Shown here one piece after another: positions 3,800 through 19,042 of a stretch of 20,703 bases of DNA (the first letter of the stretch is position 1; the number at the start of each line of letters is the position of its first letter). Source of the stretch: Promethearchaeota archaeon (lineage in GTDB: Archaea > Asgardarchaeota > Lokiarchaeia > Sigyniarchaeales > SOKP01); assembly GCA_016926735.1 (NCBI GenBank), contig JAFGOA010000092.1, forward strand, positions 1 through 20,703, written 5' to 3'. Under the pieces are notes generated by a model. That model made no database searches. It was not told the origin of the DNA and saw only the letters and a program-made list of their open reading frames with translations. A program made the position numbers and the translations under genes.

Positions 3800-5476
3800 T
3801 TAAAGATTCTCAATCCAATTAATATCTATCTTATTTAGAGCATTCTCTGATTCTTTTTTTATTTTCCAATCTAAATCTGTTAAAAGTTCTGCTAAAGGTT
3901 TGATTGCTTTTATATCACCAAGTTGACCAAGAGTTTTTATTGCAATAATTTTAATTTTGGAATCACTGTCTTTTAATGAATCAATAAGTAAATCAATATT
4001 TTCCTTGTCTCCTAATCGTCCTATTGCTCTAATCGCCCATTTTCTAATATGAATATCTTTATCATGAATAGATGATATCACAGAATTTAAAGTTTCTTTA
4101 GTTCCAATTTTCATTAATAAAATAATAGAACATCTTCTTAAACGCCAATCAGAATCATTTAATTTATCTTTTGCAAATAATATTATTTTAGGATTATGAA
4201 TTCTGGCTAAAGTATTTGTAGCAGCTATTCTTACTCTATTATTTTTATCTTGCATAAGTGGAATAAGTGCATCAATAATTATATTTTCTTGAATATTCTT
4301 AATATTTCCTAATATTTTTGAGACTGCTTTCCTAATTTGCCAATGAGGAGATTTTAACGCCTCTAACAATGTATTATCAATTTGATCTTGAGAAATTTTA
4401 ATTATGGAACTGATAGCCTTTTTCCTAATTTTTGAATTTTTACTATTTAAAGCTTTGATTAAATGATCTAAAGATTCCTTATTATTTATTATCCCCATAA
4501 GGCTTATATACCCAGCTCTTATGTTTATATTCTTATGTTCTAAATATTGGTATTGTGATTTGGTCATTTTTAAGTCACTGAATAGATTACTCAATGCTTT
4601 TATTACTTTCTTTCTTATTTTGAGATCTGAAGTTTTTAAAAGATTAGTCAGGGGCTTTATGGCGACCTTATTTCTAAGCTTTCCAAGTATCTGAATTGCT
4701 AAATATTTTACTTTCAAATTTTTATAATTAAGTAATTCAATTATTTTCTCAATTACATCAGTAGGGATTTCTTTTTTCATTAATGAATGAATTGTTTTAA
4801 GAGAATTTATTTTTACTATATCATCTTTATTACTCAATAATTGATATATTATTTCAATAGAAGCTGTATTTTTTATTTTTCTTAAAATTAATGGAATTGA
4901 TCTCCTGATATATATATTTTCATTATCTATATATGGATATATTAGATTAATTCCTTTATTTTTAATAATTTTTGATATTGAATCTATTATATCATACTTT
5001 ATCTCGTTTTTTCCATATCTTAGAAGCTCTATTAAATATTTAAGAGCCTTTTCATTTCCAATTCTTCCTAATTGAGAAATAGATAATTTTTTAATATCAA
5101 TATTAGAATCTTTTAATGAGTTAATTATAAATTCTATATTGGAATCATCTGGATTAATTTCAATCGATTTTAAAATTTCCATTCTAACTTTCCAATCCTT
5201 TTCTTTTTTATAATGTTCTTCTAAAAATTTTTTTCCTTTAAGAGTATAGAATAAATTTAATAATTCGATTAATTTAATCTTAACATTTGAATTCGTCTCC
5301 TTATTATATATGTATTTGATTTCATTAAAATGCGAATTATCATGAAATAAAATCAATTTTTCAATACATTTTATATTTCTTTCCCAAGAATTTGATGATT
5401 TTAAAAGGGAGTGTAGTTCAATGATTGCTTCTGAAGGTCCCATTTCATCAAATTTCTTAAAAATTAGATCATCCAT
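3800..5476 (-). CDS. HEAT-repeat (PBS lyase HEAT-like) alpha-solenoid protein
   Basis: Many ~31-aa repeats of the type L...L.D.D..(I/V)R..A...LG.(I/L)G...A(I/L)..L across nearly the whole 558 aa. Confidence 0.9.
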   Translation of the reverse strand: MDDLIFKKFDEMGPSEAIIELHSLLKSSNSWERNIKCIEKLILFHDNSHFNEIKYIYNKETNSNVKIKLIELLNLFYTLKGKKFLEEHYKKEKDWKVRMEILKSIEINPDDSNIEFIINSLKDSNIDIKKLSISQLGRIGNEKALKYLIELLRYGKNEIKYDIIDSISKIIKNKGINLIYPYIDNENIYIRRSIPLILRKIKNTASIEIIYQLLSNKDDIVKINSLKTIHSLMKKEIPTDVIEKIIELLNYKNLKVKYLAIQILGKLRNKVAIKPLTNLLKTSDLKIRKKVIKALSNLFSDLKMTKSQYQYLEHKNINIRAGYISLMGIINNKESLDHLIKALNSKNSKIRKKAISSIIKISQDQIDNTLLEALKSPHWQIRKAVSKILGNIKNIQENIIIDALIPLMQDKNNRVRIAATNTLARIHNPKIILFAKDKLNDSDWRLRRCSIILLMKIGTKETLNSVISSIHDKDIHIRKWAIRAIGRLGDKENIDLLIDSLKDSDSKIKIIAIKTLGQLGDIKAIKPLAELLTDLDWKIKKESENALNKIDINWIENL

Positions 5477-5604: not shown

Positions 5605-6447
5605 CTATATTCTTATTTTAGTAGCTCTTTTCCTAACATATAGTATAATTCCTAACAATGAAATAGCACTTACTCCAATAAAAACAACTAATTCATAACC
5701 AGGGATTGCACCTTCTTCCATAGTTATTACTTTATTTCCTCCATAATTAACTGATATCTTTTGCATCCATCCATCATCAGCATAAGTCATAGAAATATCA
5801 AAAGCAGCTAAATTAAGGGTTACTGAAGAATTGTATGCGATTGAACAAGCAGGAATATTAATTGTTATACCGTTTGCAAGGGCACTAATTGTAAAAGGTG
5901 GTAACGTTATTGGGTCTTCTGGGCCTGGTATAGATATTAGAGAATTGATATCCTCCACAATATCTGTCCAATTTGCTCCAACTGGCATAATAATACCAGG
6001 AGGAATTGGTTTAGGTTCAATTAAAAATGTATTATTAAAATAATTTCTTTCTTCAGGATCAAAAACAACAGTTTCTATTTCTTCTGATTCCAATGGCATA
6101 CCCATATATTCCATTGTGGCATTTAATCCGACCACATGATATCCAATTGAACCAATAGTAGTATAGTTTTCTGGACTAACTGAAATAACTTCAAGATTAA
6201 ATCCAAACGCTTGATCACCTGCTGCGAATATATCTTCATATCCTTCTGGGAGATCCGGTATTATCTCCGAAAGATCTGATATTAAATTTAGAAGTCCTGT
6301 ACTATGGATTGTAACGGTATAGGATCTTTTATCCCCTACTGAAACACCGCAATAACCGCTCGATTGAGCAATCGTATAATTGGGAATAATACCTAAAATT
6401 AAAAAAGAAGTTAGGATAAAAATTGATATTATTTTAGATTTCTTCAT
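5605..6447 (-). CDS. Secreted/cell-surface glycoprotein with C-terminal Loki-CTERM/PGF-CTERM-like sorting signal
   Basis: Signal peptide MKKSKIISIFILTSFLILGII. C-terminal IPGY + TM helix + basic tail RKRATK. N-x-S/T sequons NYT (x2), NAT, NNT, NWT, NSS. Confidence 0.8.
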   Translation of the reverse strand: MKKSKIISIFILTSFLILGIIPNYTIAQSSGYCGVSVGDKRSYTVTIHSTGLLNLISDLSEIIPDLPEGYEDIFAAGDQAFGFNLEVISVSPENYTTIGSIGYHVVGLNATMEYMGMPLESEEIETVVFDPEERNYFNNTFLIEPKPIPPGIIMPVGANWTDIVEDINSLISIPGPEDPITLPPFTISALANGITINIPACSIAYNSSVTLNLAAFDISMTYADDGWMQKISVNYGGNKVITMEEGAIPGYELVVFIGVSAISLLGIILYVRKRATKIRI

Positions 6448-6746
6448 GGATTATTCATTTAATTTTAAGGATTAACAAAATAATGAGTATTTAGATATAT
6501 AAATTTTTACCATTTTTGAAGAAAAAAAATTTTGATAATTTTCATTCTTATTTCTATTATTATATTTAAGCCTAGATATTTATATCTTCTATATTTCTGG
6601 ATGATCTTAATTTATATTGTTTATATAAATAGAAAAAATAAATCTGTATTGGAATGAGATTATCTAAATAATATAATTCAATAAATTCTTGAATTCTTCA
6701 ATATGATTTATTTAAAATAAAAATGTAAAAAAAAGAATTTTTTTAT

Positions 6747-7013
6747 CTAAACGCTTTCTAATTTAAATAATATTGTAGAATGTGGTATATAAAATTCATC
6801 CTCTTTCTTTAATATAACGCTATGAAAATACTCCGCTAATCCTAAAAATCCACGTATAACAGATTCATCTTCTTCAAATTTAAAAACAACGACAGCTATC
6901 GCATTTTTTCCACTAATTAATGTTTTATCATATACTCTTTCATCAATGAGAGGAATTTTTAATTCGTTAACAATTTCATATACTCTTTTTACAAAAAGTT
7001 CAGCTTTTCCTAT
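6747..7013 (-). CDS. Small hypothetical protein (88 aa) missing from the ORF track; probable non-canonical ATA start
   Basis: Hand translation: (M)GKAELFVKRVYEIVNELKIPLIDERVYDKTLISGKNAIAVVVFKFEEDESVIRGFLGLAEYFHSVILKKEDEFYIPHSTILFKLESV*. Stop-free for 88 codons with globular composition. SD AGGTGA lies 6 nt upstream of ATA. No in-frame ATG/GTG/TTG, and an in-frame TGA sits just upstream. Confidence 0.75.
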   Translation of the reverse strand: MGKAELFVKRVYEIVNELKIPLIDERVYDKTLISGKNAIAVVVFKFEEDESVIRGFLGLAEYFHSVILKKEDEFYIPHSTILFKLESV

Positions 7014-7019
7014 AATATA

Positions 7020-7025
7020 TCACCT
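7020..7025 (-). promoter_or_regulatory. Shine-Dalgarno-like site (AGGTGA) of the 88-aa gene
   Basis: Plus-strand tcacct reads AGGTGA on the minus strand, a match to the archaeal SD consensus GGAGGTGA, at canonical spacing from ATA 7013. Confidence 0.65.
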
Positions 7026-7344
7026 TTTCTAAAAATATACTAATATAAATTTATCTTGATTTTTTAATTAAATGAAAGTTATCTTGCTTTATTAATAAGT
7101 ACAATTTTTTCTTATTAATATTATGTTTAAGACATGAAGAATTATATATTTTGTTAAAAATAAATTAAACTAATTACCATATTAAATCTTTTAAATAATT
7201 CGAAAATGTGAAATAAAGATAAAAATAAATTTATAAAATTTTTATTCTTAATATATATAAATTTATATTTAAGGATTATATATTCTTTATAACATTAATT
7301 ATTAATAATTCAACTTTCTAAAATATTGAGGATTTGATAAAACC

Positions 7345-7983
7345 GTGGTTTCGGAAAAAAAGAAATTGAATCGTGTTATTAGTTTTTTAAAAAAAGGATT
7401 AGTAGGGTTAACTGATGATTTAGAAGAGACTGTTAAAAATATTAAAGCATTTATTGAGTCTTTAAATAAAGCAGAGAAAGACCTAAAAGAAGTAACCATT
7501 AAAGAAGAGGTTCAAACTGTTAGTACTTCATCTGCTCAAGTTGTTGCCCCGAGTACTACTGTAAAAACAGCAGCAGCCAGTACATTATTTAGTCTTTTAA
7601 GTGGTTCACAAGTAAGTCCTTTACCTGCGCCACCAGGTTCTATTTCAGCATCCGCAGCTCCAAGACCTCCATCCTCAGGTCCTCCTAGCGCACCATCTGG
7701 AGGAGGTCCACCTAGAGCACCGCCTGGAGGAGGTCCACCTAGAGCACCACCTGGAGGTGGCCCGCCTAGTGCACCACCAAGAGCACCAAATCTGCCTCCT
7801 GCACCAACCTTACCTGGAGGAGGTCCACCTAGAGCACCACCTGGAGGTGGCCCGCCTAGTGCACCACAAATGAGTCCTCAAGCACCACCTATGGCAGCTA
7901 AACCAGGAGGAGGGTTAAGCTCATTAAGAGATGAAATGTTGGATGAATTGAATAGACTAAAGAAAATAATGCGTGGAGAATAA
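7345..7983 (+). CDS. Coiled-coil / proline-rich protein with C-terminal WH2-like helix-LKK motif (WASP/VASP-like architecture; putative actin regulator)
   Basis: GTG start. Residues ~5-52 are an amphipathic heptad helix, followed by a S/T/A-rich linker, a Pro/Gly-rich region with GGGPP(R/S)APP repeats, and the C-terminus GGGLSSLRDEMLDELNRLKKIMRGE. The CDS is well supported; the function is inferred. Confidence 0.7.
   Translation: MVSEKKKLNRVISFLKKGLVGLTDDLEETVKNIKAFIESLNKAEKDLKEVTIKEEVQTVSTSSAQVVAPSTTVKTAAASTLFSLLSGSQVSPLPAPPGSISASAAPRPPSSGPPSAPSGGGPPRAPPGGGPPRAPPGGGPPSAPPRAPNLPPAPTLPGGGPPRAPPGGGPPSAPQMSPQAPPMAAKPGGGLSSLRDEMLDELNRLKKIMRGE
7697..7867 (+). repeat. Intragenic 27-bp coding repeat (GGGPPxAPP), including an exact 55-bp duplication
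   Basis: cctggaggaggtccacctagagcaccacctggaggtggcccgcctagtgcaccac occurs at 7723-7777 and 7813-7867. An additional unit starts at 7697. Confidence 0.95.
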
Positions 7984-8162
7984 GGATTAACTTATAAATT
8001 CCTTATAACTATATTATCCTCTCTTTTTTATTATTTCTATAATTTGAACATCATCTGTATATCAATTTTTCTGTTATTTTTCCTTGATAAATTAATATTA
8101 ATTATAAATATAAAATAAAAATAACATCATTTATTGGAAAATAAATAGAAAGTAATAGTATT

Positions 8163-8909
8163 ATGAATAAAAAATGCATTATGATAGATGATGAGTTTAA
8201 TATATTTTTAATTCCAAGACGTATAATGGTTTTTGCGGGTCATCCTGATGATGAAATAATATCTTGTGGTGGAACTTTACTAAAATATCAATCATTAGGA
8301 TCTGAAATTATTATTGTTACTGGATCTTATGGAATAGGAGGATATTCAGAGAATTCTAAGTATAAAGAAATAGAAAATCAGAGAATAGAAGAATTAAAAA
8401 ATATATCTGAATCATTAAATTGGAAATATATAAATCTAGGATATAATGATTTAGAAATCGAGAGAGAAAAAATAGCAAACATTTCAAAATTAATAATAAA
8501 TAACAAACCTCATATAATATTAGCACCTCATTATAAAGATCTTCATAGAATACATCGTAATTTTTCATTTATAATTAGAGAGAGTATATTTCATTGTTCT
8601 TTAGGAAATGCTTATGGATTAGAAAATAGACAATGGATTCCTTATGGATTTTATTACTATGAAACAATTTCATGCAAATTACAAGATATATCTAAATCTT
8701 CTTATATCATTGTTGATATCAGTGATTATTATAAGCGAAAGATAGAAATACTTTCTAAATTTTATAAATCACAAAAAAGTTTAATAGATAATTTCTCGGA
8801 TTGGATTATGAATACAGCTTCTTTAAGAGGATATGATATAAATAACCAATTTGGAGAAGCATTTATACCAGATACATCATATACTCCTTTAAAGCTAGTG
8901 TTAATTTAA
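8163..8909 (+). CDS. PIG-L / LmbE family N-acetylglucosaminyl deacetylase
   Basis: AGHPDDE..CGGTL metal-binding motif, R..E helix, PH..D.H..H, YKSQ and C-terminal GEAF. Confidence 0.9.
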   Translation: MNKKCIMIDDEFNIFLIPRRIMVFAGHPDDEIISCGGTLLKYQSLGSEIIIVTGSYGIGGYSENSKYKEIENQRIEELKNISESLNWKYINLGYNDLEIEREKIANISKLIINNKPHIILAPHYKDLHRIHRNFSFIIRESIFHCSLGNAYGLENRQWIPYGFYYYETISCKLQDISKSSYIIVDISDYYKRKIEILSKFYKSQKSLIDNFSDWIMNTASLRGYDINNQFGEAFIPDTSYTPLKLVLI

Positions 8910-8986
8910 AATGAAATGTTAATAAAATAGGTTTTTAATTAATATTATTTTATTATTATAATCAGAGATATAATGAATTATAAATT

Positions 8987-10102
8987 ATGCCAAATTTAAC
9001 AATTGTTCTTGATATTGGTCAATTTAGTAGTAAATGTGGATTTTCAGGAGAAGATAATCCTTCGATGATATTTTTCACTATGGTTGGGACTCCAAAATAT
9101 CATGGATTTGCGGGTAAATTTACTAAACAGGAACAAGATTTATATGTTGGAGATGAAATTCAATCATTAGGACTTTACAAAATTGAGTATCCAATTCAAG
9201 AGGGAAAAATAACAGATTGGAAATTTTTCGAGAGAATTATTGATTATATATTTTATAACTTAAGAGTAGATCCAACACTTGTAAACGTACTTTTTGCAAT
9301 TCATCCATTATTCCCTAAACAAGATATTGAGAGACTATTTCATCTCTTTTTAGAACACTATCAATGTATGGCATTTTATCCTGTTTTAGATTCTATGTTA
9401 ACATTATATTCTGGAGGATTCCAAACAGGATTAGTAGTTGAAATAGGAGATAGTAGTACCAGAATAATTCCGATCTATGAGGGATATAAACTGAGCCATG
9501 CTATAAAAATTGTTAATATTGGAGGTCGAACCTTAACAAAATATATGGGAGATATTTTAAAGGATTCAATTGGATTCAATGTTGAATCATCAATTAGGAA
9601 AGAACTTGTAAGAGCTATTAAAGAAAAAGCTTGTTTTCTATCTTTAGACTATAATGAAGATCTAAAGAGAAGTGAACAATATAAAAAACAATATTCATTA
9701 CCAGATGGAGCAACAATAAATCTAAGTAAGGAGAGATTTATTGTACCAGAATTATTATTTAATCCCTCTTCTGAATTAGAATCTGATCCTTTACATAAAA
9801 TAATTTTAGATGTAATTGAAGAATGTGATTTGGATATTAGACCAAAACTTTTAAACAATATATTTCTTTCAGGAGGATCATCAATGTTCCCAAATATGAA
9901 GGCGAGATTATATCAAGAATTAGAATTAGAATTAACTAGAAGAAAAAAACAATATCAATCTATTCGAATAATGGCTCCTCGGGAAAGAATATATTCAGTA
10001 TGGACAGGTGGATCTATTTTAGCTATGATCCCAGAATTTTCAAATACTTGGGTAACGAGAGCAAAATATTTTGATCAAGGTATTCCAGAAGAATTATTAT
10101 AA
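8987..10102 (+). CDS. Actin-family protein (Asgard actin-related protein, divergent)
   Basis: Colinear with eukaryotic actin: VLDIGQFSSKCGFSGEDNP, YVGDE, YPIQEGKITDW, LRVDP, TGLVVEIGD, PIYEGYKLSHAI, GGRTLTKYM, VRAIKEKACF, YSLPDG, ERFIVPELLFNP, CDLDIRPKLLNNIFLSGGSSMFP, APRERIYSVWTGGSILA. Confidence 0.95.
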   Translation: MPNLTIVLDIGQFSSKCGFSGEDNPSMIFFTMVGTPKYHGFAGKFTKQEQDLYVGDEIQSLGLYKIEYPIQEGKITDWKFFERIIDYIFYNLRVDPTLVNVLFAIHPLFPKQDIERLFHLFLEHYQCMAFYPVLDSMLTLYSGGFQTGLVVEIGDSSTRIIPIYEGYKLSHAIKIVNIGGRTLTKYMGDILKDSIGFNVESSIRKELVRAIKEKACFLSLDYNEDLKRSEQYKKQYSLPDGATINLSKERFIVPELLFNPSSELESDPLHKIILDVIEECDLDIRPKLLNNIFLSGGSSMFPNMKARLYQELELELTRRKKQYQSIRIMAPRERIYSVWTGGSILAMIPEFSNTWVTRAKYFDQGIPEELL

Positions 10103-10229
10103 ATAATATTATTTCCAGACAAGCATTTAACCAAATATAGAAAAAGTAGGTAATATACCAATATTACATCTAATTTTATATATTTATTAAATATATCTTC
10201 ATAACACAATAATTTATTTTATAGGTAAA

Positions 10230-10610
10230 ATGAATATGGAAAACGTATCAAATTCAGAAATAAATTCAGATCAATTGATAAAACAATTTTATAAACCTGA
10301 TTATGATATATTATTCAATAAAATTAAAAGTATTAAAACTCCAATAAAGACAGATTTATTAAAAGCTCTCTTAGATGGTTCATGGCATTCAGAATTGGAA
10401 TTAATTAGAATTGCAAAAAAGCAAGAAAAATATGTAGGTACTGTAACTTTAGGTACAATTGTTCGTTCATTAAACCATGTTCTTACTAATGATTACGTTG
10501 AAAAAAAAATAATAAATGAAAAATTATTTTATAAATTATCTGATAATTATGTAGGATTGACAAGAGCAGCATATACCAAATATCAATATGTTAATCATAA
10601 ATTGGAATAA
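10230..10610 (+). CDS. Small winged helix-turn-helix protein, function unknown
   Basis: LLKALLDGSWHSELELIRIA (helix 1/2), GTVTLGTIVRSL (recognition helix) and YVEKKIINEKLFYKLS (beta wing). Confidence 0.65.
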   Translation: MNMENVSNSEINSDQLIKQFYKPDYDILFNKIKSIKTPIKTDLLKALLDGSWHSELELIRIAKKQEKYVGTVTLGTIVRSLNHVLTNDYVEKKIINEKLFYKLSDNYVGLTRAAYTKYQYVNHKLE

Positions 10611-10653
10611 AAATTCTTTTTCAATAATTTCATTCAATCTTTTTTTAGCAATT

Positions 10654-11142
10654 TTATAAATAATCACTTTTTTTAAAAAAATGTAATGATAAAATGTTAA
10701 GTAAAAGTATGACTAAAATAAGATAATAACCTAATCCTAAAATTGAAAAAATAAATAAGAAATCATTCCAATCCAATAGAGTAAAAACAATAATTGTATA
10801 AACTGTAATCAAAAAAGTAGATATTAGAATATTTAATGAGTATAATTTAAATATGTTATTGGATTTAGTATTTGATAACGCTGTTATAATTGAAGATATT
10901 CCAATAAAAATTATTAATATCCAAAGAAAAATTGCCATTAAATTTTCTGGAAAGTTCATATTCATTGAATTTAAAGAAGATATTCCATTTTCTATAGTAC
11001 CCCATATATAATATTCTGAATTATCTATAGAAAAAATATTAAAACTAATTTTTAAATTATTTTCCGGAGAAATAGGTATAATACTTATTAATGCAATTAA
11101 AAATGCTAAGATACTAGATATATATCCAATTTTTCTATTCAT
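10654..11142 (-). CDS. Four-TM membrane protein (paralog B of tandem pair)
   Basis: Four hydrophobic segments. The loop after TM1 contains YYIWGTI, and LGLGYYLIL leads into TM4. Confidence 0.8.
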   Translation of the reverse strand: MNRKIGYISSILAFLIALISIIPISPENNLKISFNIFSIDNSEYYIWGTIENGISSLNSMNMNFPENLMAIFLWILIIFIGISSIITALSNTKSNNIFKLYSLNILISTFLITVYTIIVFTLLDWNDFLFIFSILGLGYYLILVILLLNILSLHFFKKSDYL

Positions 11143-11157
11143 AATTTATTCACATTA

Positions 11158-11679
11158 TTATATTAATGGATGTTTTATAAATGCTATAAATGATAATATG
11201 AGGTTTAATAATATAATATAAAAACCATAATCTAAATATGAAAACACTTCTAATAATCCAAATTTAACTCCAAATATTTCTTCACTGTATATTGTAAATC
11301 CTAAGATAGAGTACAGTATTATAAAAAACAGTGAAAGAAAATTATAACTCATTAGTCTCTTTCCTAGAGAATCTTTCTTTGTTGAGCCTACTAGTGAAAA
11401 TATAATCGCTAATAATCCTAAGATTGAAAGGAAAATAAAACTGATGATAAAGGGCATTGAACTACTATTGACCCAAAAATTAAAACCATCTTGATTTAGA
11501 GTACCCCATAAAAAATATTGATTGTTATTAAAATTAACAAGAGAAACAGGTAATTTTATAAATGAATCAACTTCCACTGTAGAACTTACCTCATTCCAAA
11601 AATAAATTCCTATAGGAATAAATGGTAAAAACAATGTTAAGAGGGTTATAATAGCAGATATTAATCCTAATCGATTCAT
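11158..11679 (-). CDS. Four-TM membrane protein (paralog A of tandem pair)
   Basis: Four hydrophobic segments. The loop after TM1 contains YFLWGTL, and LDYGFYIIL leads into TM4. The MNR..G.IS start is shared with the downstream paralog. Confidence 0.8.
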   Translation of the reverse strand: MNRLGLISAIITLLTLFLPFIPIGIYFWNEVSSTVEVDSFIKLPVSLVNFNNNQYFLWGTLNQDGFNFWVNSSSMPFIISFIFLSILGLLAIIFSLVGSTKKDSLGKRLMSYNFLSLFFIILYSILGFTIYSEEIFGVKFGLLEVFSYLDYGFYIILLNLILSFIAFIKHPLI

Positions 11680-11773: not shown

Positions 11774-13963
11774 TTATAATTTTTTTTCCACACACATATT
11801 TTTTTCAATTTTATAAGTCTCGCAATTAGAGCAAAATCCCTTTCCTGATATTTTTGATTTTAGTCCAATATTCCAACAATAAGGACACAAATAATAATGT
11901 AATAGCTTATTATTTTTTCTATAATTTATTCTAAAAATATTGAATCCACACAACTTACACGAAGAATTTTTTAATATGTATATACTTCCTTTATTTGGGA
12001 GAGATAAATATTTTTCTTTACAATTATCATTCAAACAAATTAAAAATTTCCTTTTATTTCTCGGTTCTATTAATTTCATATGATTTTGATTACAGAAAGG
12101 ACATTTACACGATGTAATATTTTCTAATGAGGATCTAGAGTTCTTTTCAGAAATATTTGTTATTTTATAATTTGAAATATCAGTTAATATCTTTTCTTGA
12201 TTATTTTTCAACTTATCAAAAAGTTCCAAAAATAACTTTTTAAAAATTTCTAAAACTTCTTCTTTTTGTTTTTTTCCTATTTTAATTTCTTCTAATAATT
12301 GTTCAATCATTCGCGTAAATTCAGGTTTTAAAAAAGGTAACCATATTTTTTCTAACATCTTAATGATAAAAATTCCTAATTCTGTGATTTTGTATTTTTT
12401 TTTAAAGTAATGAATTAGAGCTCTTTTTTCAAGGATATGTATTATTATTGGTCTTGTTGATTTAGTTCCTAAATTATTTTTTTCCATCAACTTTAATAAA
12501 GTGGTGTCGTTATATTCTGGATTAGGTTTTGTTTCCTTTTTATTTAATGTAATTTTATCAACAGGAAAAATATCATGAGTTATTCTGATTAATGAATCAT
12601 ATTTTCTTTTTAAAAAAGGAGCAATTTCTAAAAATCCTTCTGTTAATAAAGTTGCTAATTGAGAATTGAAAATTTCTTCTTTTATAGATAATTTGAGATA
12701 CACTCTTGATTCAATAGCTCTCTCTCCAAATAAAGCTAAATAATGTCTTGCTAATATATTATATACTTTTGAATGTAATTTAGTTTTAAATTTATTATTT
12801 TCTAATTCCAAAGATTCTATTGGAGTTATTGGTGGGTGATCACCAGCATCTTTCTTTCCTTTTGTAGGGTAAATTAGTTGATTAGCTATTAATTTTTTAG
12901 AAAATAAAGCATAAAGCGAATGATTATTAAATTTTAAAATATGACTTTTATGATCAAAATTCGTTTTGTAGATATCACTATCAGTTCTAGGATAAGTTAT
13001 TATTTTATCTAAATACAGATCATTCATTATTTTTAAAGCTAAATTTGCACTGATGTGAAGAGTTTTTGTTATTAATATCAATGCTTTTGATGTATTTAAC
13101 GGACTAGGGGGATTCAAAAAGATTTGTTTTGACGAGTTATCAATAACTTTCGCTGTTTTTTCATCTTTTATTTTGTTATAAATCATCTCAGCATTTAGAA
13201 ATTGATCTTTATTAAAGGGATTTAATTGATGGAATGCTTTAAATTTATTATTTTCATAATTTAGATTTGCTTCTATAGTTAGAAAAGGTTCCGGAATAAA
13301 GTCTTTAATTTCCTTATCTCTTAAATAGATAAGATAAAGTAAACAGGTTTGTACTCTTCCTATAGACGTAAATTTATGATTAAATTTTTCTAAAAGGGGT
13401 TTAAGAATGAAAGTAACTTGTCTTGAGCTTGAAAAACCTATAATAGCATCAATTATTGCCCTTGATTCTCCAGACTCTGCCCAAGTGTATTTTGGAGCTA
13501 TAGGATTGTTATATTTATCTAAGATTTCTTTTTTATCTAAAGAACTTAACCAAAGTTGTTTTACATTAATAGTATTATTCTCTTGTTTTACAAATGGTAA
13601 TGCATCTAATAATCCAATATTACAACCCTCAATATCTGCATCTGTTCCAATCAGACATAAATCACATTGTGGTGCATATTTTTTTAATACTTTAATAAAG
13701 GGAAAAGCATATGATTTGGGAGCTTTCTCAATTGCATATTTATTTGTTATAATTTCTCTTGGATTTGAATTCTTCCAGCTTTTATATTTTTCAGAGTTTT
13801 TATATTCTAAAATATGACCTCTTAATGGAATAATGATTATATTTTTTAATAAAACTTTATAAACTTTTACCGTTTTATTGGATTCGATAATCTTAACGCT
13901 ACCTAATGCTTCAGCTATGGCTTCTGCTGCCTTATTTTTCTCAGCAATTATTAATGTTTTCAT
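11774..13963 (-). CDS. topA: Type IA DNA topoisomerase (archaeal TopA / topoisomerase III-like) with C-terminal Zn ribbons
   Basis: Toprim LIIAEK and DADIEG motifs, GH, SIGRVQT, catalytic Tyr in ITYPRTD, DHPPITP, LGTKSTR, and C-terminal Cys clusters CPFC, CLNDNC, CKLC, CPYC, CSNC. Confidence 0.95.
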   Translation of the reverse strand: MKTLIIAEKNKAAEAIAEALGSVKIIESNKTVKVYKVLLKNIIIIPLRGHILEYKNSEKYKSWKNSNPREIITNKYAIEKAPKSYAFPFIKVLKKYAPQCDLCLIGTDADIEGCNIGLLDALPFVKQENNTINVKQLWLSSLDKKEILDKYNNPIAPKYTWAESGESRAIIDAIIGFSSSRQVTFILKPLLEKFNHKFTSIGRVQTCLLYLIYLRDKEIKDFIPEPFLTIEANLNYENNKFKAFHQLNPFNKDQFLNAEMIYNKIKDEKTAKVIDNSSKQIFLNPPSPLNTSKALILITKTLHISANLALKIMNDLYLDKIITYPRTDSDIYKTNFDHKSHILKFNNHSLYALFSKKLIANQLIYPTKGKKDAGDHPPITPIESLELENNKFKTKLHSKVYNILARHYLALFGERAIESRVYLKLSIKEEIFNSQLATLLTEGFLEIAPFLKRKYDSLIRITHDIFPVDKITLNKKETKPNPEYNDTTLLKLMEKNNLGTKSTRPIIIHILEKRALIHYFKKKYKITELGIFIIKMLEKIWLPFLKPEFTRMIEQLLEEIKIGKKQKEEVLEIFKKLFLELFDKLKNNQEKILTDISNYKITNISEKNSRSSLENITSCKCPFCNQNHMKLIEPRNKRKFLICLNDNCKEKYLSLPNKGSIYILKNSSCKLCGFNIFRINYRKNNKLLHYYLCPYCWNIGLKSKISGKGFCSNCETYKIEKNMCVEKKL

Positions 13964-14099: not shown

Positions 14100-17000
14100 T
14101 TAAAGTGGGAGACTAAAAAGAAAAGTTGATCCTTTATTTTTACCCACAGATTCTACCCATATTTTACCACCATGTCCTTCGATAATCCCTTTTGAGATAT
14201 AGAGTCCTAAACCACTTCCCTTCGAAAAATATTCAATATTACTATCCAGCATTATAAATTTTCCAAATAATTTCTTTATTTCCTTTTCAGTAAGACCTAT
14301 ACCGTTATCCTTTATTTTATATATAATTTTATTATCGATCTTTTCATCAGTGATTTGAATTGTACAATTAGATGGAGTAAATTTTAAAGCATTTGAGATT
14401 AAATTCGAAAATACTTGAGTTATTCTCAATGAGTCCACATTTAATTCTATAGTATTATCAATTTCAAGTTTTATTTCAATATTTTTCTTTTTAATATGAT
14501 AATTCAAATCCAAAATGCATTTATTGAGTATTTTTGAAATGGAAACTTTTTGTATCTCAAAATCCATTTTTTTAGCATCTATTTTTAAAGCATCCAATAA
14601 TTGATTTACATAAGACTCTAATCTTCTTGAATTATTAAGAATAATTTTTAATTCCTCTTTGATTTCACTCTTCAAATCTAGCTCTCTTAACATAATAAGA
14701 TCTATATACCCCGAAATACAATATAAAGGAGTTTTTAATTCATGGGCTGCCATAGTTATAAAATCTGTTTTTAATTTATCCAATTTCATTAATTCTCGAT
14801 TTTGTTCTTTAAGTTTTCTTTCTGATTCTATTAATTGTAATTCAGTTTGTTTTTTAACTGTAATATCGACAGCAGAAAATAATATAGCAGAACTACCTTC
14901 ATATGGAATTCTTCTTAGAAATATTACTAAATATTTATCCTTCTTATCTTTTGTTAAAATTCTTAAGGTGTATTCTAATGTTTTTCCAATCTCCAAATTT
15001 TCAATTTCTTTGATCATAATAGGAATAGTTTTAATATCGGGTGGATTAAAACATTTTATCAAATCTTTCACTTCCCATAATTTTAATTCTTCTTCTGCAT
15101 AACCAATCATCTGTGATAACGCTTTATTTGCATATAAAACTTTATAGTCTTGTAAAATTGCAACACCGAGTAAAGATTGTTCTGTGATTGTTCTAAACTT
15201 TTCTTCAGATACTCTTAATTCATGAGTTCTCTCTAATATTTTCTTTTCTAGTAATTTATTTAGTCTTAAAAGTTTCTCTTCGGAATATTTAAGTTGTTCT
15301 TCTGTCTTTTTTCTTTCACTTATATCACGGGCTAATAAAATTCCTTTTATTTTATTATCTCTGTCTAAAAATGGTGTTCCTTTAACATCAAGCCATACCC
15401 AATGATTATCCTTATGTTTAAATCTTATTTCTCCAGAACCCGCTTCTTTGTTTAAAAATCCTTTACTTATTGCTTTTATGGACCTATTAATATCATCAGG
15501 ATGCAAAAATTCTGTACATTTTCGCCCAATCATTTCCTCTTTTGTATAACCTAATCCTTTTAAATGAGGTTCTTCATTAATATATTCATATTCAAATTTT
15601 TCATTTATAATATTAATAAAATCATTTGCATTTTCAGAAATTAATCGATATTTATTTTCTGACTCTTTTAACCTTTCTTGAAGGTTGTATTTTTCTGTAA
15701 TTATTCTCAATAATCCTGCGTAACCAATTTTTTCACCTTCAGTATTTTTTCTTAGATATACTGAACTTTCGACCACATCTTCTTTATTATTTTTAAAATG
15801 ACCCTTATATTGTAAATCTCTTAATCCTTTTTCTTTTTTATATACTTTTTTAAATGCCTTTTGTAATTTTGTATTATTTTTTAGGTCACAAAAATCTGAA
15901 AAATTCATTTTTTTTAATTCTTCTTTGGAGTATCCAGTAGCTTCGGAAAATGGATCATTAAAAAAGGTGAGATTTCCTTTTAAATCAGTTTCAAAATAAG
16001 ATTCTTTTATATTTTCTAAAATACTACGATATTTTTCTTCAGATGCTTTAAGTTGTTCTTCTGAAATTTTTCTCTGGGTTATATCTTCATAAGTAGATAA
16101 AATTCCAACAACATTATTTTTATCATCACTTATTGGGATTCTATTTATATTGAAAATAACTTTTTTACCATTTTCAAATATTTCTGTTTCAATACTATTT
16201 AATTGGGGAATATTACTTTCTAAAACAATTCTTTCAAGGTTTTCTACATTATATAAATTCTTTTTAAAAAAAGAAATTTTTTTATTAGTCATTCCACTTA
16301 ATTTATCACAACTATCTAACTCAATTAGGTTTACGAAATTATAATTACATCCCAGATATTTAAGATCTTTATCCTTCCAAAAGATATATTGAGGGATATT
16401 ATCAATTACTTTCTCCAACATTTCTTGGGATTTCTGAACTGCTGTTATTGCTTTTTTCGGTACTAATAACTTCCAATATCGAATTTCTGGAACCTCATGA
16501 TATAACCAGTCCAGTCTTTCTTGATTCTCTGCTATTTCTTGTTGGAGAAGTTTATTTTTAGATATATTCTTTAATAAAATCGAAATAACTTCTGCTCCTT
16601 TATAGTATATCTTTTCTAAATTGATAATTTTAAACCATTTATAGCCCTTTTTCTTACTTTTAATTCTTATTTCTTTGGAAAAATCATCTGAAATTTTTAT
16701 ATTGCTTAAATATTGAGAAATATTTAATTTGTCTTCATTATGTACAAAATCAATAATATTTTTGTCTAAAAGATCTATAGATGTAAATCCAAGTTGGTGA
16801 AAAAATTGGTTTTTATTAATATATTTAATTGAATAATCTTCATTTGGATTAATTACTAAAATTAAATTATTAGTATGTTTAAAAACAATATCTTGAATAT
16901 TGTCTTCATTTTGAGTATAATTTTGTTCTTGAATTTCCTTATTTATTCTGTTGATGCAATAAATCCCTTTATTTTTTCCATTCTTATTAAAATAGGGGAT

Positions 17001-17309
17001 TAAATGCATTATTACATCAACAGGTATACCATCATTATCAATTAATTGAACTTTGATAATTTTTATGTATTTATTTTGATTAATTTTAAATTTATCAAAA
17101 TCATCATAGAAATCTTTACTACAAAAATAATTTTTTATTGGTTTGCCAATAATTTCATTTTCAGAATAATTCAGATATTTTTGTACCTCTGGGCTACAAA
17201 ATCGAATAATTCCTTTTTGATCAACATACCATACCCAATCTCCTACTGAAGAAATGAAATTAAAGAAATATTCCTCATTATCAGATGGCTCATTTATAAT
17301 AGATTCCAC
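14100..17309 (-). CDS. Cytoplasmic multi-PAS sensor histidine kinase
   Basis: About six PAS/PAC domains ending in DIT/DIS-type linkers. H-box AAHELKTPL, N-box QVFSNLISNALKF, G1 DNGIG, G2 GSGLGL, GSTF. No TM segments. GTG start with GGTGA upstream. Confidence 0.95.
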   Translation of the reverse strand: MESIINEPSDNEEYFFNFISSVGDWVWYVDQKGIIRFCSPEVQKYLNYSENEIIGKPIKNYFCSKDFYDDFDKFKINQNKYIKIIKVQLIDNDGIPVDVIMHLIPYFNKNGKNKGIYCINRINKEIQEQNYTQNEDNIQDIVFKHTNNLILVINPNEDYSIKYINKNQFFHQLGFTSIDLLDKNIIDFVHNEDKLNISQYLSNIKISDDFSKEIRIKSKKKGYKWFKIINLEKIYYKGAEVISILLKNISKNKLLQQEIAENQERLDWLYHEVPEIRYWKLLVPKKAITAVQKSQEMLEKVIDNIPQYIFWKDKDLKYLGCNYNFVNLIELDSCDKLSGMTNKKISFFKKNLYNVENLERIVLESNIPQLNSIETEIFENGKKVIFNINRIPISDDKNNVVGILSTYEDITQRKISEEQLKASEEKYRSILENIKESYFETDLKGNLTFFNDPFSEATGYSKEELKKMNFSDFCDLKNNTKLQKAFKKVYKKEKGLRDLQYKGHFKNNKEDVVESSVYLRKNTEGEKIGYAGLLRIITEKYNLQERLKESENKYRLISENANDFINIINEKFEYEYINEEPHLKGLGYTKEEMIGRKCTEFLHPDDINRSIKAISKGFLNKEAGSGEIRFKHKDNHWVWLDVKGTPFLDRDNKIKGILLARDISERKKTEEQLKYSEEKLLRLNKLLEKKILERTHELRVSEEKFRTITEQSLLGVAILQDYKVLYANKALSQMIGYAEEELKLWEVKDLIKCFNPPDIKTIPIMIKEIENLEIGKTLEYTLRILTKDKKDKYLVIFLRRIPYEGSSAILFSAVDITVKKQTELQLIESERKLKEQNRELMKLDKLKTDFITMAAHELKTPLYCISGYIDLIMLRELDLKSEIKEELKIILNNSRRLESYVNQLLDALKIDAKKMDFEIQKVSISKILNKCILDLNYHIKKKNIEIKLEIDNTIELNVDSLRITQVFSNLISNALKFTPSNCTIQITDEKIDNKIIYKIKDNGIGLTEKEIKKLFGKFIMLDSNIEYFSKGSGLGLYISKGIIEGHGGKIWVESVGKNKGSTFLFSLPL

Positions 17310-17509: not shown

Positions 17510-19042
17510 TTAAAAAAATTTAATTTCGCTTGGCATCTTATCAAGATAATTCCTAAATTTTTCTGGCCAATCTTCTATATTAAATCCATGTTGGGCTAAA
17601 AAGACAGCAACCCATCGTTCTAATCCAATTCCTGTACAACCACTCCAAATAATTTTCTTTTTTTGATTTTTTAAGTTAAATGCTTTGATATATTTATCAC
17701 CAACAATAGAAAAATTCTGAAATTCTAACCATTCACTTTCTTCTCTGCTTCCCCTATAAGGCAACCATGCTTCATAATCAATAGTTCCTAATTGTCCTTC
17801 TATTGTCTCTTCTTTAAAAAGATCACCTGCTTGTTGCATATAGAAAGGAGTTACACTAGCCATTCTCCATTCAATTTCAAGAATATCATTAAAAATTTTC
17901 TTATATTTATCCATAAATTTCTTTTGAATATCGATTAAATTATTTGGTTCTCCAATAAAAACAACTTCTATACGATGAAATTCATCTACCCGTTCTATTC
18001 CATGTCTACCACCCGATTCATAACGAAACGAATTTGTTGTTTTTTCGAAGAGTAATATTGGAAATGATTCATCTGAAATTGTTTTACCTTTAAACGCCCA
18101 ATATATTGAAGGACATTGAGCATATACAAGTCCTTTTAATGGTTCTAATTGTATCATATTTTTAAGTTCATCATAAGGAATTTCTTGGGTAATTTTAATT
18201 AAATCAATAAAATATTCCCATTCTTTTGTGTTTCGAGTTCTTGGTTCTGCTACATAATAAATTTCCATAGGCATACCTTCAAGATGACCTGTTTTTATCC
18301 ACACATCTTCTCCTGATACAATGTTTGAATTCTTAATTTCGTTAAATCCCAATGGTTTTAATAATTCCTCTAAAACAATTTTTTCCAAAGTATTAAAAAT
18401 ATTTGTTGCTGGGGGCCAATAAATCCATTTTCCTTTGGTCGATGCTGGAGCTATCCAATTCTTCTTTACCATCTCGATAGTTGGATCATCTTTTATTTTT
18501 ATTTCCTTTCTTGGACTTTCATAAAGAATTTTGTGATATTCTGCCTTTCCTTCATAATATGATCTATCAATTTTTTCTTTAATTCTCTTAATAATCCTTT
18601 CTACGTTTCCTTTTGTGATAAAATTTTTATCTACTTTATTAATCTCAATTGAACATGTCTTGTTATTATTATTAATATTGATTTTATCAATGAAAGGAAT
18701 AGAGATTTCTTCTTGAGGTAATTTTTCTAAAGGAAAATTTATATTCAACAGTTCAATTTCAAGTGAACTGATACCTATATGTAATTCTTTGCCTATATGT
18801 TCAGCGAGAGTCTTTCGTATACGATAAAATATTATATGCGCGGATTTATTTTCTGTATTTATTTCTCCTTTGATCGACTTATCATCTGATATTTCATATT
18901 TAGATTTATAGTTTATTTCATCCAAATTCTTAAATCCTTTTAATATTTCATTTTCAGCTTTCTTAAGAAACTCAAAAACCTTCTCTTTATATTGAGAAAT
19001 ATCCTTATTAAATACAATTTTTCCTATTAGTTTATATTTCAT
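17510..19042 (-). CDS. serS: Serine--tRNA ligase, methanogen-type (SerRS2, Zn-dependent)
   Basis: Long alpha/beta N-terminal domain. AQCP (Zn-binding Cys), motif 2 FRYESGGRHGIERVDEFHRIE, WLEFQN, and motif 3 WSGCTGIGLERW. Confidence 0.95.
   Translation of the reverse strand: MKYKLIGKIVFNKDISQYKEKVFEFLKKAENEILKGFKNLDEINYKSKYEISDDKSIKGEINTENKSAHIIFYRIRKTLAEHIGKELHIGISSLEIELLNINFPLEKLPQEEISIPFIDKININNNNKTCSIEINKVDKNFITKGNVERIIKRIKEKIDRSYYEGKAEYHKILYESPRKEIKIKDDPTIEMVKKNWIAPASTKGKWIYWPPATNIFNTLEKIVLEELLKPLGFNEIKNSNIVSGEDVWIKTGHLEGMPMEIYYVAEPRTRNTKEWEYFIDLIKITQEIPYDELKNMIQLEPLKGLVYAQCPSIYWAFKGKTISDESFPILLFEKTTNSFRYESGGRHGIERVDEFHRIEVVFIGEPNNLIDIQKKFMDKYKKIFNDILEIEWRMASVTPFYMQQAGDLFKEETIEGQLGTIDYEAWLPYRGSREESEWLEFQNFSIVGDKYIKAFNLKNQKKKIIWSGCTGIGLERWVAVFLAQHGFNIEDWPEKFRNYLDKMPSEIKFF

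Follow-up and report, generated by a model that had tools for sequence, protein, structure and literature searches.

Introduction

Class I nucleation-promoting factors (NPFs) of the WASP/WAVE kind carry, behind their WH2 motif, a central (C) and an acidic, tryptophan-containing (A) region that engages the Arp2/3 complex. The C-terminal peptide of FtsZ is a linker-plus-peptide tether of a cytoskeletal protein, and MIT-interacting motif 1 (MIM1) follows the consensus (D/E)xxLxxRLxxL(K/R). To our knowledge, profilins and gelsolins are the only established actin regulators of Asgard archaea, and we know of no function for any Asgard actin-related protein (ARP). Here we analyse a stretch of 20,703 nt (the window: contig JAFGOA010000092.1 of assembly GCA_016926735.1) from a Promethearchaeota archaeon of the Lokiarchaeia, whose genome of 3.88 Mb is 99.3% complete and has about 25% G+C. 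Four of its genes, which we call P, D, A and W, form an island on the plus strand next to a small minus-strand gene, s88. A model that had read only the letters (the original prediction) took the island for a primitive 'NPF + Arp' system analogous to WASP-Arp2/3. We find the island to be real and, with little better than even confidence, consider it a mosaic of two units, not one dedicated actin-nucleation system.

Two described systems come close to parts of it. According to PMC7240154, the C-terminal helices of Asgard Vps2/24/46 proteins resemble MIM1, and isothermal titration calorimetry showed binding to the Vps4 MIT domain; PMC8970359 defines MIM2 patterns and finds that most Asgard ESCRT-III homologues end in MIM1. 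'Candidatus Lokiarchaeum ossiferum' has four actin homologues, one Lokiactin and three ARPs, according to PMC9834061.

Results

The four-gene island

The genes with which we are concerned are the following.

7345-7983, plus strand: P, a proline-rich protein of 212 aa, with a GTG start and a GAGGA motif upstream
8163-8909, plus strand: D, a PIG-L/LmbE-family deacetylase of 248 aa with an HPDDE motif
8987-10102, plus strand: A, a divergent actin paralogue (Asgard ARP) of 371 aa
10230-10610, plus strand: W, probably a winged-helix protein, 126 aa, found 3' of A in most genomes of the family
6747-7013, minus strand: s88, a stand-alone alpha/beta protein of 88 aa with an ATA start

The layout first described agrees with the listing of open reading frames (ORFs). 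P, D, A and W follow one another on the plus strand with gaps of 179, 77 and 127 nt, between minus-strand genes to the left (5605-6447 and s88) and to the right (10654-11142 and 11158-11679). From the end of P to the start of A there are 1004 nt, previously given as about 1 kb, and a T-rich stretch including a run of six T follows the P stop codon. All four are real genes: orthologues of each, with their frames kept open, occur in most of 40 related genomes. The placing of D in the PIG-L family is borne out by PF02585 (E 6.7e-19; 69.1 bits against a cut-off of 28.2); its metal-binding HPDD motif is present as HPDDE, and models of the BshB1/MshB type match it only below their cut-offs. P, W, s88 and the two four-transmembrane (4-TM) ORFs to the right have no Pfam family at E <= 0.01; P, W and s88 have none in NCBIfam either.

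Below, f1 denotes the family of the window and f2 its sister family; G and L codes denote related genomes and loci, G000 being the window's own genome. Profile searches across the phylum cover 301 genomes, and the order-level sample comprises 41.

s88 is the constant neighbour of P

Database searches returned 83 homologues of P, from metagenome-assembled genomes of Promethearchaeota, all of them unnamed or called 'hypothetical protein'; the matching Atlas cluster has 357 members. Orthologues occur in 38 of the 41 genomes of the order, and the P profile matches 115 of the 301 phylum genomes, that of s88 104. Full-length P and s88 have an identical list of families (f1, f2, f5, f6, f7, f16 and f25).

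The two genes are also neighbours. Outside f1 and f2 they lie within 2 kb on one contig in 24 of the 25 genomes that have both (five families; the exception is G147), and the place tables of f1 give 54 of 61. In f23, a local search with a hidden Markov model (HMM) found the pair 376 nt apart. Their orientation is divergent in f1, tandem in f3 and f6, and convergent in f7, f16, f25 and f23, so the two have stayed adjacent despite rearrangement. Besides s88, distant P genes are surrounded by unrelated genes of housekeeping function, among which neither actin nor ESCRT recurs as a theme. s88 is thus the constant conserved partner gene of P across Asgard families.

A has a much narrower range. Its orthologues occur in 60 of 68 genomes of f1 and in 7 of 7 of f2, and nowhere else among the 301, apart from three borderline matches in f29 at 44% identity. 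A co-occurrence of P and A across lineages, which the original prediction would lead one to look for, does not extend beyond these families: P and s88 are found together in at least five further Asgard families without an A orthologue. It follows that P did not arise as a factor serving A.

The s88 protein is easily overlooked. Its stop-to-stop ORF (6747-7019, minus strand) holds no ATG, GTG or TTG, and we placed the start at an ATA codon (7013-7011) by alignment of orthologues (A2, 23 sequences). Isoleucine, encoded by ATA or ATT, stands at this position in 5 of the 23 (the window, L008, L013, L015 and L020), where the remaining sequences begin with ATG, GTG or TTG; the gene is likely to be missed or shortened by standard gene callers. 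The AlphaFold model, at a predicted local distance difference test (pLDDT) of 92.6, shows a domain of the order helix-strand-strand-helix followed by three strands. Comparison with the PDB gave no convincing fold match (best Foldseek E 0.084, best VIA-align Z 4.5); low-scoring, scattered rows to glyoxalase halves, clamp-loader lids, histidine-kinase CA domains and G-domains were not convincing. Against 1.84 billion representative proteins, the s88 profile retrieved 27 clusters, all of at most 115 aa and none fused to another domain.

Several further occurrences of s88 were seen. The window's genome has two more paralogues that are not beside P-like genes (C141:11830-12087 and C222:10797-11036): one is found upstream of the gene for a 250-aa protein whose start is Sybindin-like (longin) below threshold, and the other downstream of the gene for a regulator of the PadR family. 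In genus g63 of f11 (L062, L066), the divergent neighbour of s88 is not a P-type gene but encodes a coiled-coil protein of some 525 aa, whose end is weakly MarR-like. In a complete genome (G075:C1 2271544-2287494), an s88/P-like pair lies about 10 kb from two ESCRT-III genes, a proximity found in none of the other genomes checked.

P ends in an invariant peptide shared with membrane proteins

Alignment A1 (22 sequences) shows some 50 conserved residues of helical pattern in the N-terminal part of P, followed by an AASTLFxLLSG motif, a variable proline-rich linker, an NLPPAPKLPP motif and a C-terminal helix. The helicity of the N-terminus and the disorder of the linker were read from sequence alone. 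Three features can be placed on the DNA.

7669-7870, plus strand: 27-nt (9-aa, GGGPPRAPP-type) coding repeats in the P linker (repeat families D1 and D2)
7789-7815, plus strand: NLPPAP(K/T)LP motif in the P linker (A1)
7906-7980, plus strand: putative docking helix at the C-terminus of P, GGLSSLRDEMLDELNRLKKIMRGE, marked by its conservation and its recurrence in other architectures

Orthologues of P are 204-259 aa long. Their linker varies in length and is built of GGPP(K/R)AP-type repeats, visible in the DNA as the 27-nt repeats; in its motif, L150, P151, P152, P154 and P157 are invariant or nearly so. We rejected a reading of NLPPAPKLPP as a MIM2 element: it fits only the loose core pattern given in PMC8970359, does not fit the full one, and such a fit is expected by chance in a proline-rich region.

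The most conserved part of P is its C-terminal stretch, GLSSLRDEMLxELxRLKKIMRG. Thirteen of the 16 positions of the tail core are invariant in the 22 sequences, even though leucine uses 4-6 codons there and arginine 4-6. A peptide that stays invariant despite saturating synonymous change is under strong purifying selection. It forms the last 25 residues, after the proline-rich linker, in all 28 sequences of a further alignment (A5) and in membrane-bound forms; its helicity is suggested by the heptad pattern.

At each of 16 distant loci (16/16), the best match to the P profile ends in L-(R/K/Q)-x-E-M-(L/M)-x-E-(L/I/M)-x-(R/K)-(L/I)-(K/R)-x-hydrophobic-(M/F/I), always after a proline-rich linker. 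Three architectures end in this way: soluble proteins of the P type (200-260 aa); proteins of 270-350 aa that have a coiled-coil-like region and, at the N-terminus, a hydrophobic segment (seven loci); and multi-pass membrane proteins of about 560 aa that occur as tandem pairs (two loci). Transmembrane character was judged by eye. Families that have only membrane forms of the tail gave no s88 match (0 of 21 genomes in f26, 0 of 5 in f20, 0 of 11 in f31 and 0 of 3 in f17), hence s88 goes with the N-terminal part of P. The same tail thus occurs in families without s88 or A, and A is confined to f1 and f2; the partner of the tail should therefore be one common to Asgard lineages, and not A.

Membrane-anchored tail proteins adjoin a gene for ribose-5-phosphate isomerase A in all five loci scanned (L050, L052, L055, L057 and L059; f11, f26, f20 and f17), and those of f26 occur as tandem pairs. 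Pfam gave nothing above cut-off for tails, membrane-type tail proteins or distant P forms; a single sub-threshold CCDC53 row (E 0.012) was disregarded. The idea that the tail is a membrane-binding helix was also rejected: the peptide is acidic, and proteins already anchored in the membrane carry it too. In the literature searched, which did not extend to supplementary tables such as the Lokiactin co-immunoprecipitation list of PMC13716822, we found no description of the P family, of s88 or of the shared tail.

The tail recalls the ends of ESCRT-III proteins

The Vps2/24/46-like ESCRT-III protein of the same genome ends in IDELEKELNRLKSKD, against DEMLDELNRLKK in P; in a longer comparison, the terminus of P reads RDEMLDELNRLKKIMRGE. 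The two have E-L-N-R-L-K and D-E-(L/M) in common, and the pattern E-hydrophobic-x-x-E-L-x-R-L-K. ESCRT-III tails from all eight lineages inspected follow the form E-hydrophobic-x-x-E/Q/D-hydrophobic-x-R/K/E-hydrophobic-K/R. In Vps20/32/60-like proteins an LPxVP-type motif precedes the terminal helix, a loose parallel to the NLPPAPKLPP of P, a proline-rich L-P-x-hydrophobic-P motif upstream of its own helix. As with the MIM1 helices described in PMC7240154, an amphipathic helix would stand at the extreme C-terminus of P behind a flexible linker. Unlike ESCRT-III proteins, P has no Snf7 core (Pfam). The genome encodes one clear MIT-domain protein, whose gene is divergent beside that of the Vps2/24/46-like ESCRT-III.

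The resemblance, a matter of residue pattern, is suggestive only. Because the tail looks like the MIM1-like terminal helix of the same genome's ESCRT-III, we tentatively prefer the Vps4 MIT domain as its hub, a choice that stays well below even probability. The conserved Lokiactin comes second and is unlikely. Otherwise the hub may be some other protein, or the helix may self-associate.

When the tail HMM was run on all 8,510 ORFs of the genome with 60 aa or more, P scored 2.5e-13. The only other match below E 0.05 was an unrelated 164-aa ORF (C228:29163-29654, minus strand; E 0.011), in which the motif of the tail occurs internally, as SLREEMLTELDYLKDLI, ahead of a cysteine-rich end.

A variable disordered linker that leads to a short, highly conserved C-terminal peptide, common to different proteins, may also be likened to FtsZ. 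The peptide of FtsZ is unrelated in sequence to the tail of P, and the comparison is one of analogy only.

P and A are linked in one family but not in its sister

Among 24 related genomes of f1, 22 have orthologues of both P and A. In 20 of these 22 the two lie on one contig within 7.5 kb, with order and strand conserved; in the remaining two, the contig breaks inside D (G014) or the genes are on different contigs (G011). D stands between P and A in 15 genomes of the family, and W lies within 1.5 kb 3' of A in 16. G004 and G008 have no orthologue of P, D or A. In G004 all of P, D, A and W are absent, s88 and the left flank are kept, and other genes, including one for a TIR-domain protein, occupy the place of P. 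Joint loss of adjacent genes is weak evidence for a module, because one event suffices. Synteny in f1 extends equally over 15 kb, from the histidine kinase, the topoisomerase, the 4-TM pair and W through A, D, P and s88 to the HEAT-repeat protein, which favours neither side and weakens the reading of P-D-A-W as a module there.

The sister family differs. In none of the ten genomes of f2 with both orthologues are P and A within 10 kb (0/10); they share a contig in three, at 70, 44 and 100 kb, and are otherwise on different contigs. There, A is found directly downstream of a Ras-family GTPase (L025:10791-11378 and L026:7283-7864; by position also L041), and in genus g17 (L027, L042) it ends a same-strand row of seven genes: a Roc/Arf-like GTPase, four genes of no known family, D and A, with only 2-20 nt between the last two. 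A locus of f3 (L034) has the order s88-P-D with no A beside it, and in f4 no A orthologue was found. The conserved linkage of the four genes that the original prediction asked about therefore holds in f1 and breaks down in f2. The 4-TM pair, to which the original prediction saw a possible tie, stands beside W in 8 of 11 mapped loci of the family and is absent from L031, L032 and L040. Linkage is tighter between D and A and between A and W than between P and A; s88-P-D-A is probably the ancestral arrangement at the level of the order.

These data bear on the best surviving alternative, in which s88, P, D, A and W would be one order-specific system, partly dispersed in sister families, such as a filament of the ARP that P and s88 tether and that D and W regulate. 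Pieces in the same order in three families (s88-P-D in L034 of f3, D-A in g17 of f2, s88-P-D-A-W in f1) speak for it, as does the joint absence from G004 of P, D, A and W, with s88 and the left flank remaining. A single rearrangement explains that loss, however, and the right flank is unjoined there too; in f2, A adjoins a Ras-family GTPase or sits in a GTPase-led row without P; and in f1 the rest of the neighbourhood, with the topoisomerase and the histidine kinase, is no less syntenic. We regard this alternative as unlikely.

A is an actin paralogue with changed active-site residues

A matches actin (PF00022) with E 5.8e-84 over residues 5-365 of its 371. The genome has four actin-fold genes: A, one on C4 that is 41% identical to A, and two others at 33% and 28%. 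The C4 gene encodes the conserved actin (Lokiactin), with 96-100% identity within the family and 69-80% across the phylum. Like the set reported for 'Ca. L. ossiferum' in PMC9834061, this one has one conserved and three divergent members, A among the latter. A differs in its changed phosphate-loop and catalytic residues, and in that neighbours are described for it here (D and W; small GTPases in f2).

The residues were compared between A with nine orthologues and the genome's own Lokiactin (A3 and a PDB alignment), in the numbering of muscle actin. The first phosphate loop, DNGTG in Lokiactin, is DIGQF in A. The equivalent of Gln137 is Asp, or Gly in two genera. The second loop, DIGDG, becomes EIGDS, EMGAS or DMGAA/DMGAS, and the equivalent of His161 is Arg in 10 of 10. 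Because such changes occur in all ten aligned sequences, A is to be described as a fast-evolving actin paralogue with a predicted alteration of its hydrolysis site. Two orthologues contain one in-frame stop each (G268:C142:30075-31187, TAG; G242:C137:1813-2919, TAA); they may be pseudogenes or sequencing errors.

A is not Arp2/3-like, contrary to what was first proposed. Conventional or Asgard actins fill all of the best 60 PDB rows (E 5.5e-86 to 5.5e-78), with no Arp2/3 among them; by these matches, A is nearer to actin than to Arp2/3. The Arp2/3 subunits ARPC2 and ARPC4 (PF04045, PF05856) gave no match in this nearly complete genome, nor in 14 control genomes, so that the search had no positive control; ARPC1, ARPC3 and ARPC5 were not searched.

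P lacks the parts of a nucleation-promoting factor

The model from which this study set out makes P a WH2-like, proline-rich NPF or elongation factor: its helix would bind a monomer of A or of Lokiactin, its linker would recruit profilin-actin, and together with A it would be a primitive NPF + Arp. P does resemble the WASP/WAVE system in having a proline-rich region, then a short C-terminal helix containing L-K-K-I, which recalls proteins with a proline-rich domain and WH2, and in having an actin-family gene nearby. An LKKT-type motif and WH2-like motifs within Asgard gelsolins are on record in PMC9433394, and bioRxiv 10.1101/2025.11.30.690169 likewise has Asgard WH2-like motifs in gelsolins. 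Two profilins are encoded in the genome; of 22 genomes of f1, 20 have P no more than 7.5 kb from A (4 have it directly beside A); and a near-invariant tail fits a highly conserved partner, Lokiactin for instance.

The defining features that can be tested are missing, however. WH2 (PF02205) matched neither ten 45-aa tails from ten lineages at E <= 10 nor full-length P, although for so short a motif a miss is weak evidence. The distance from the hydrophobic residues of the helix to LKK is about 3 residues short of the WH2 pattern, and the fourth position is a bulky Ile, Leu, Tyr or Phe. Neither tryptophan nor a central or acidic region occurs in P, whose sequence stops 3 residues past the KKIM core, as it does in 22 of 22 sequences of A1. 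P is far more widespread than A, occurs with s88 in the five or more families that lack A, and is unlinked from A in f2; A itself is not Arp2/3-like. Loki profilins, finally, are reported in PMC8410842 not to bind VASP polyproline. An 'NPF + Arp' system analogous to WASP-Arp2/3 thus appears improbable here.

W and the idea of a segregation cassette

For W, the earlier guess of a winged helix-turn-helix (wHTH) protein is plausible, though the model is weak (pLDDT 58). Its helix-helix-helix-strand-strand order would fit a winged helix (alignment A6), every listed Foldseek row is a wHTH protein (LmrR/PadR, MarR, SmtB, AspA and TubR; E 6e-3 to 3e-2), and a PDB profile search gave AspA as best match (E 0.034). 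A cassette of the segregation type, in which A and W would be filament NTPase and DNA-binding adaptor, as in ParM/ParR or TubZ/TubR, with P and D as bystanders, could draw on the closeness of W to A in 16 genomes of f1, on W-like domains 4-6 kb from A in three genomes of f2 and on centromere-binding AspA and TubR among the weak matches of W, but PadR, MarR and ArsR regulators dominate those lists at equal scores, the model has low confidence and a repeat search found only the coding 27-nt repeats of P, with no centromere-like iterated repeats in intergenic DNA, so that this idea is very improbable.

Flanking genes and expression

The remaining annotated features of the window are these.

10654-11142 and 11158-11679, minus strand: two paralogous 4-TM ORFs, variable neighbours outside the core
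11774-13963, minus strand: topoisomerase IA with a cysteine-rich tail (Pfam)
14100-17309, minus strand: multi-PAS histidine kinase, 1,069 aa (Pfam)
17510-19042, minus strand: class II aminoacyl-tRNA synthetase with a tRNA_bind_4 domain (Pfam)
5605-6447, minus strand: secreted-type protein of 280 aa, left flank
3800-5476, minus strand: HEAT-repeat protein, 558 aa (Pfam)

The product of 5605-6447 has a weak match, below cut-off, to a C-terminal Loki-CTERM sorting domain. No integrase or repeat signs of a mobile element were seen, and that reading was dropped.

Over 6700-10700, two metatranscriptomes from the probable source study are empty. Another RNA library yielded two 151-nt contigs, 100% identical to 7397-7669, inside P; such contigs carry no information on strand, transcript ends or operons. 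A sigma-70 and terminator scan, of bacterial design and unsuited to archaea, gave 35 promoter-like sites against 34.5 expected from shuffled sequence and one terminator-like site against 1.0 expected.

Discussion

We propose that two units meet in this island. The first, s88 with P, would be an old pair found across Asgard archaea, in which P probably acts as a scaffold, docking on a shared hub. Its N-terminal helical part, which travels with s88, would bind that protein; a long disordered proline-rich linker would follow, and then the invariant amphipathic C-terminal helix as docking peptide. This helix would engage a hub common to Asgard archaea, and not the lineage-specific A. The second unit, D and A with or without W, would be specific to one order and comprise a deacetylase, an altered actin paralogue and a small winged-helix protein. 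The two would have been juxtaposed in the ancestor of the order and kept together in f1.

Some of our observations pull the other way. Within f1 a coupling of P to A is possible: D is missing in G007, G018, G019 and G024, yet P stands directly beside A there, and in the phylum sample P and A are both missing from 6 of the 8 genomes of f1 that lack P. Against the Vps4 MIT domain as hub, the ESCRT-III terminus ranks fifth in the tail-HMM scan, but its independent E of 3.9 is not significant. The tail departs from the MIM1 consensus, with one residue fewer between Leu and Arg; its helix has extra hydrophobic positions (Leu199, Ile208 and Met209); and its likeness to ESCRT-III is one of a common amphipathic pattern rich in Glu, Lys and Leu. 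P-type genes are not consistently near ESCRT genes.

Three objects at this locus deserve attention: an invariant, putative docking peptide found throughout the phylum in proteins both soluble and membrane-bound; an 88-aa protein whose confident model has no convincing fold match in the PDB; and an ARP with changed ATPase residues, beside which stand the genes of a deacetylase and a probable winged-helix protein, and those of small GTPases in relatives. The identity of the tail's receptor, be it the Vps4 MIT domain, Lokiactin or another protein, would show by what means Asgard cells anchor the machines of their cytoskeleton or of membrane remodelling. Should the tail have no such partner, the locus amounts to conserved hypothetical genes beside an actin paralogue. 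At the far end of what we consider, and with a low probability, P and its membrane-anchored cousins would form an undescribed Asgard-wide class of adaptors, with an ESCRT-III-like tail that docks on Vps4 (or on actin) borne on a proline-rich tether, the soluble form associated with the new small fold of s88 and, in one order of Lokiarchaeia, coupled to an altered actin paralogue. Were this true, it would be a direct genetic link between membrane-remodelling and actin systems in the closest archaeal relatives of eukaryotes.

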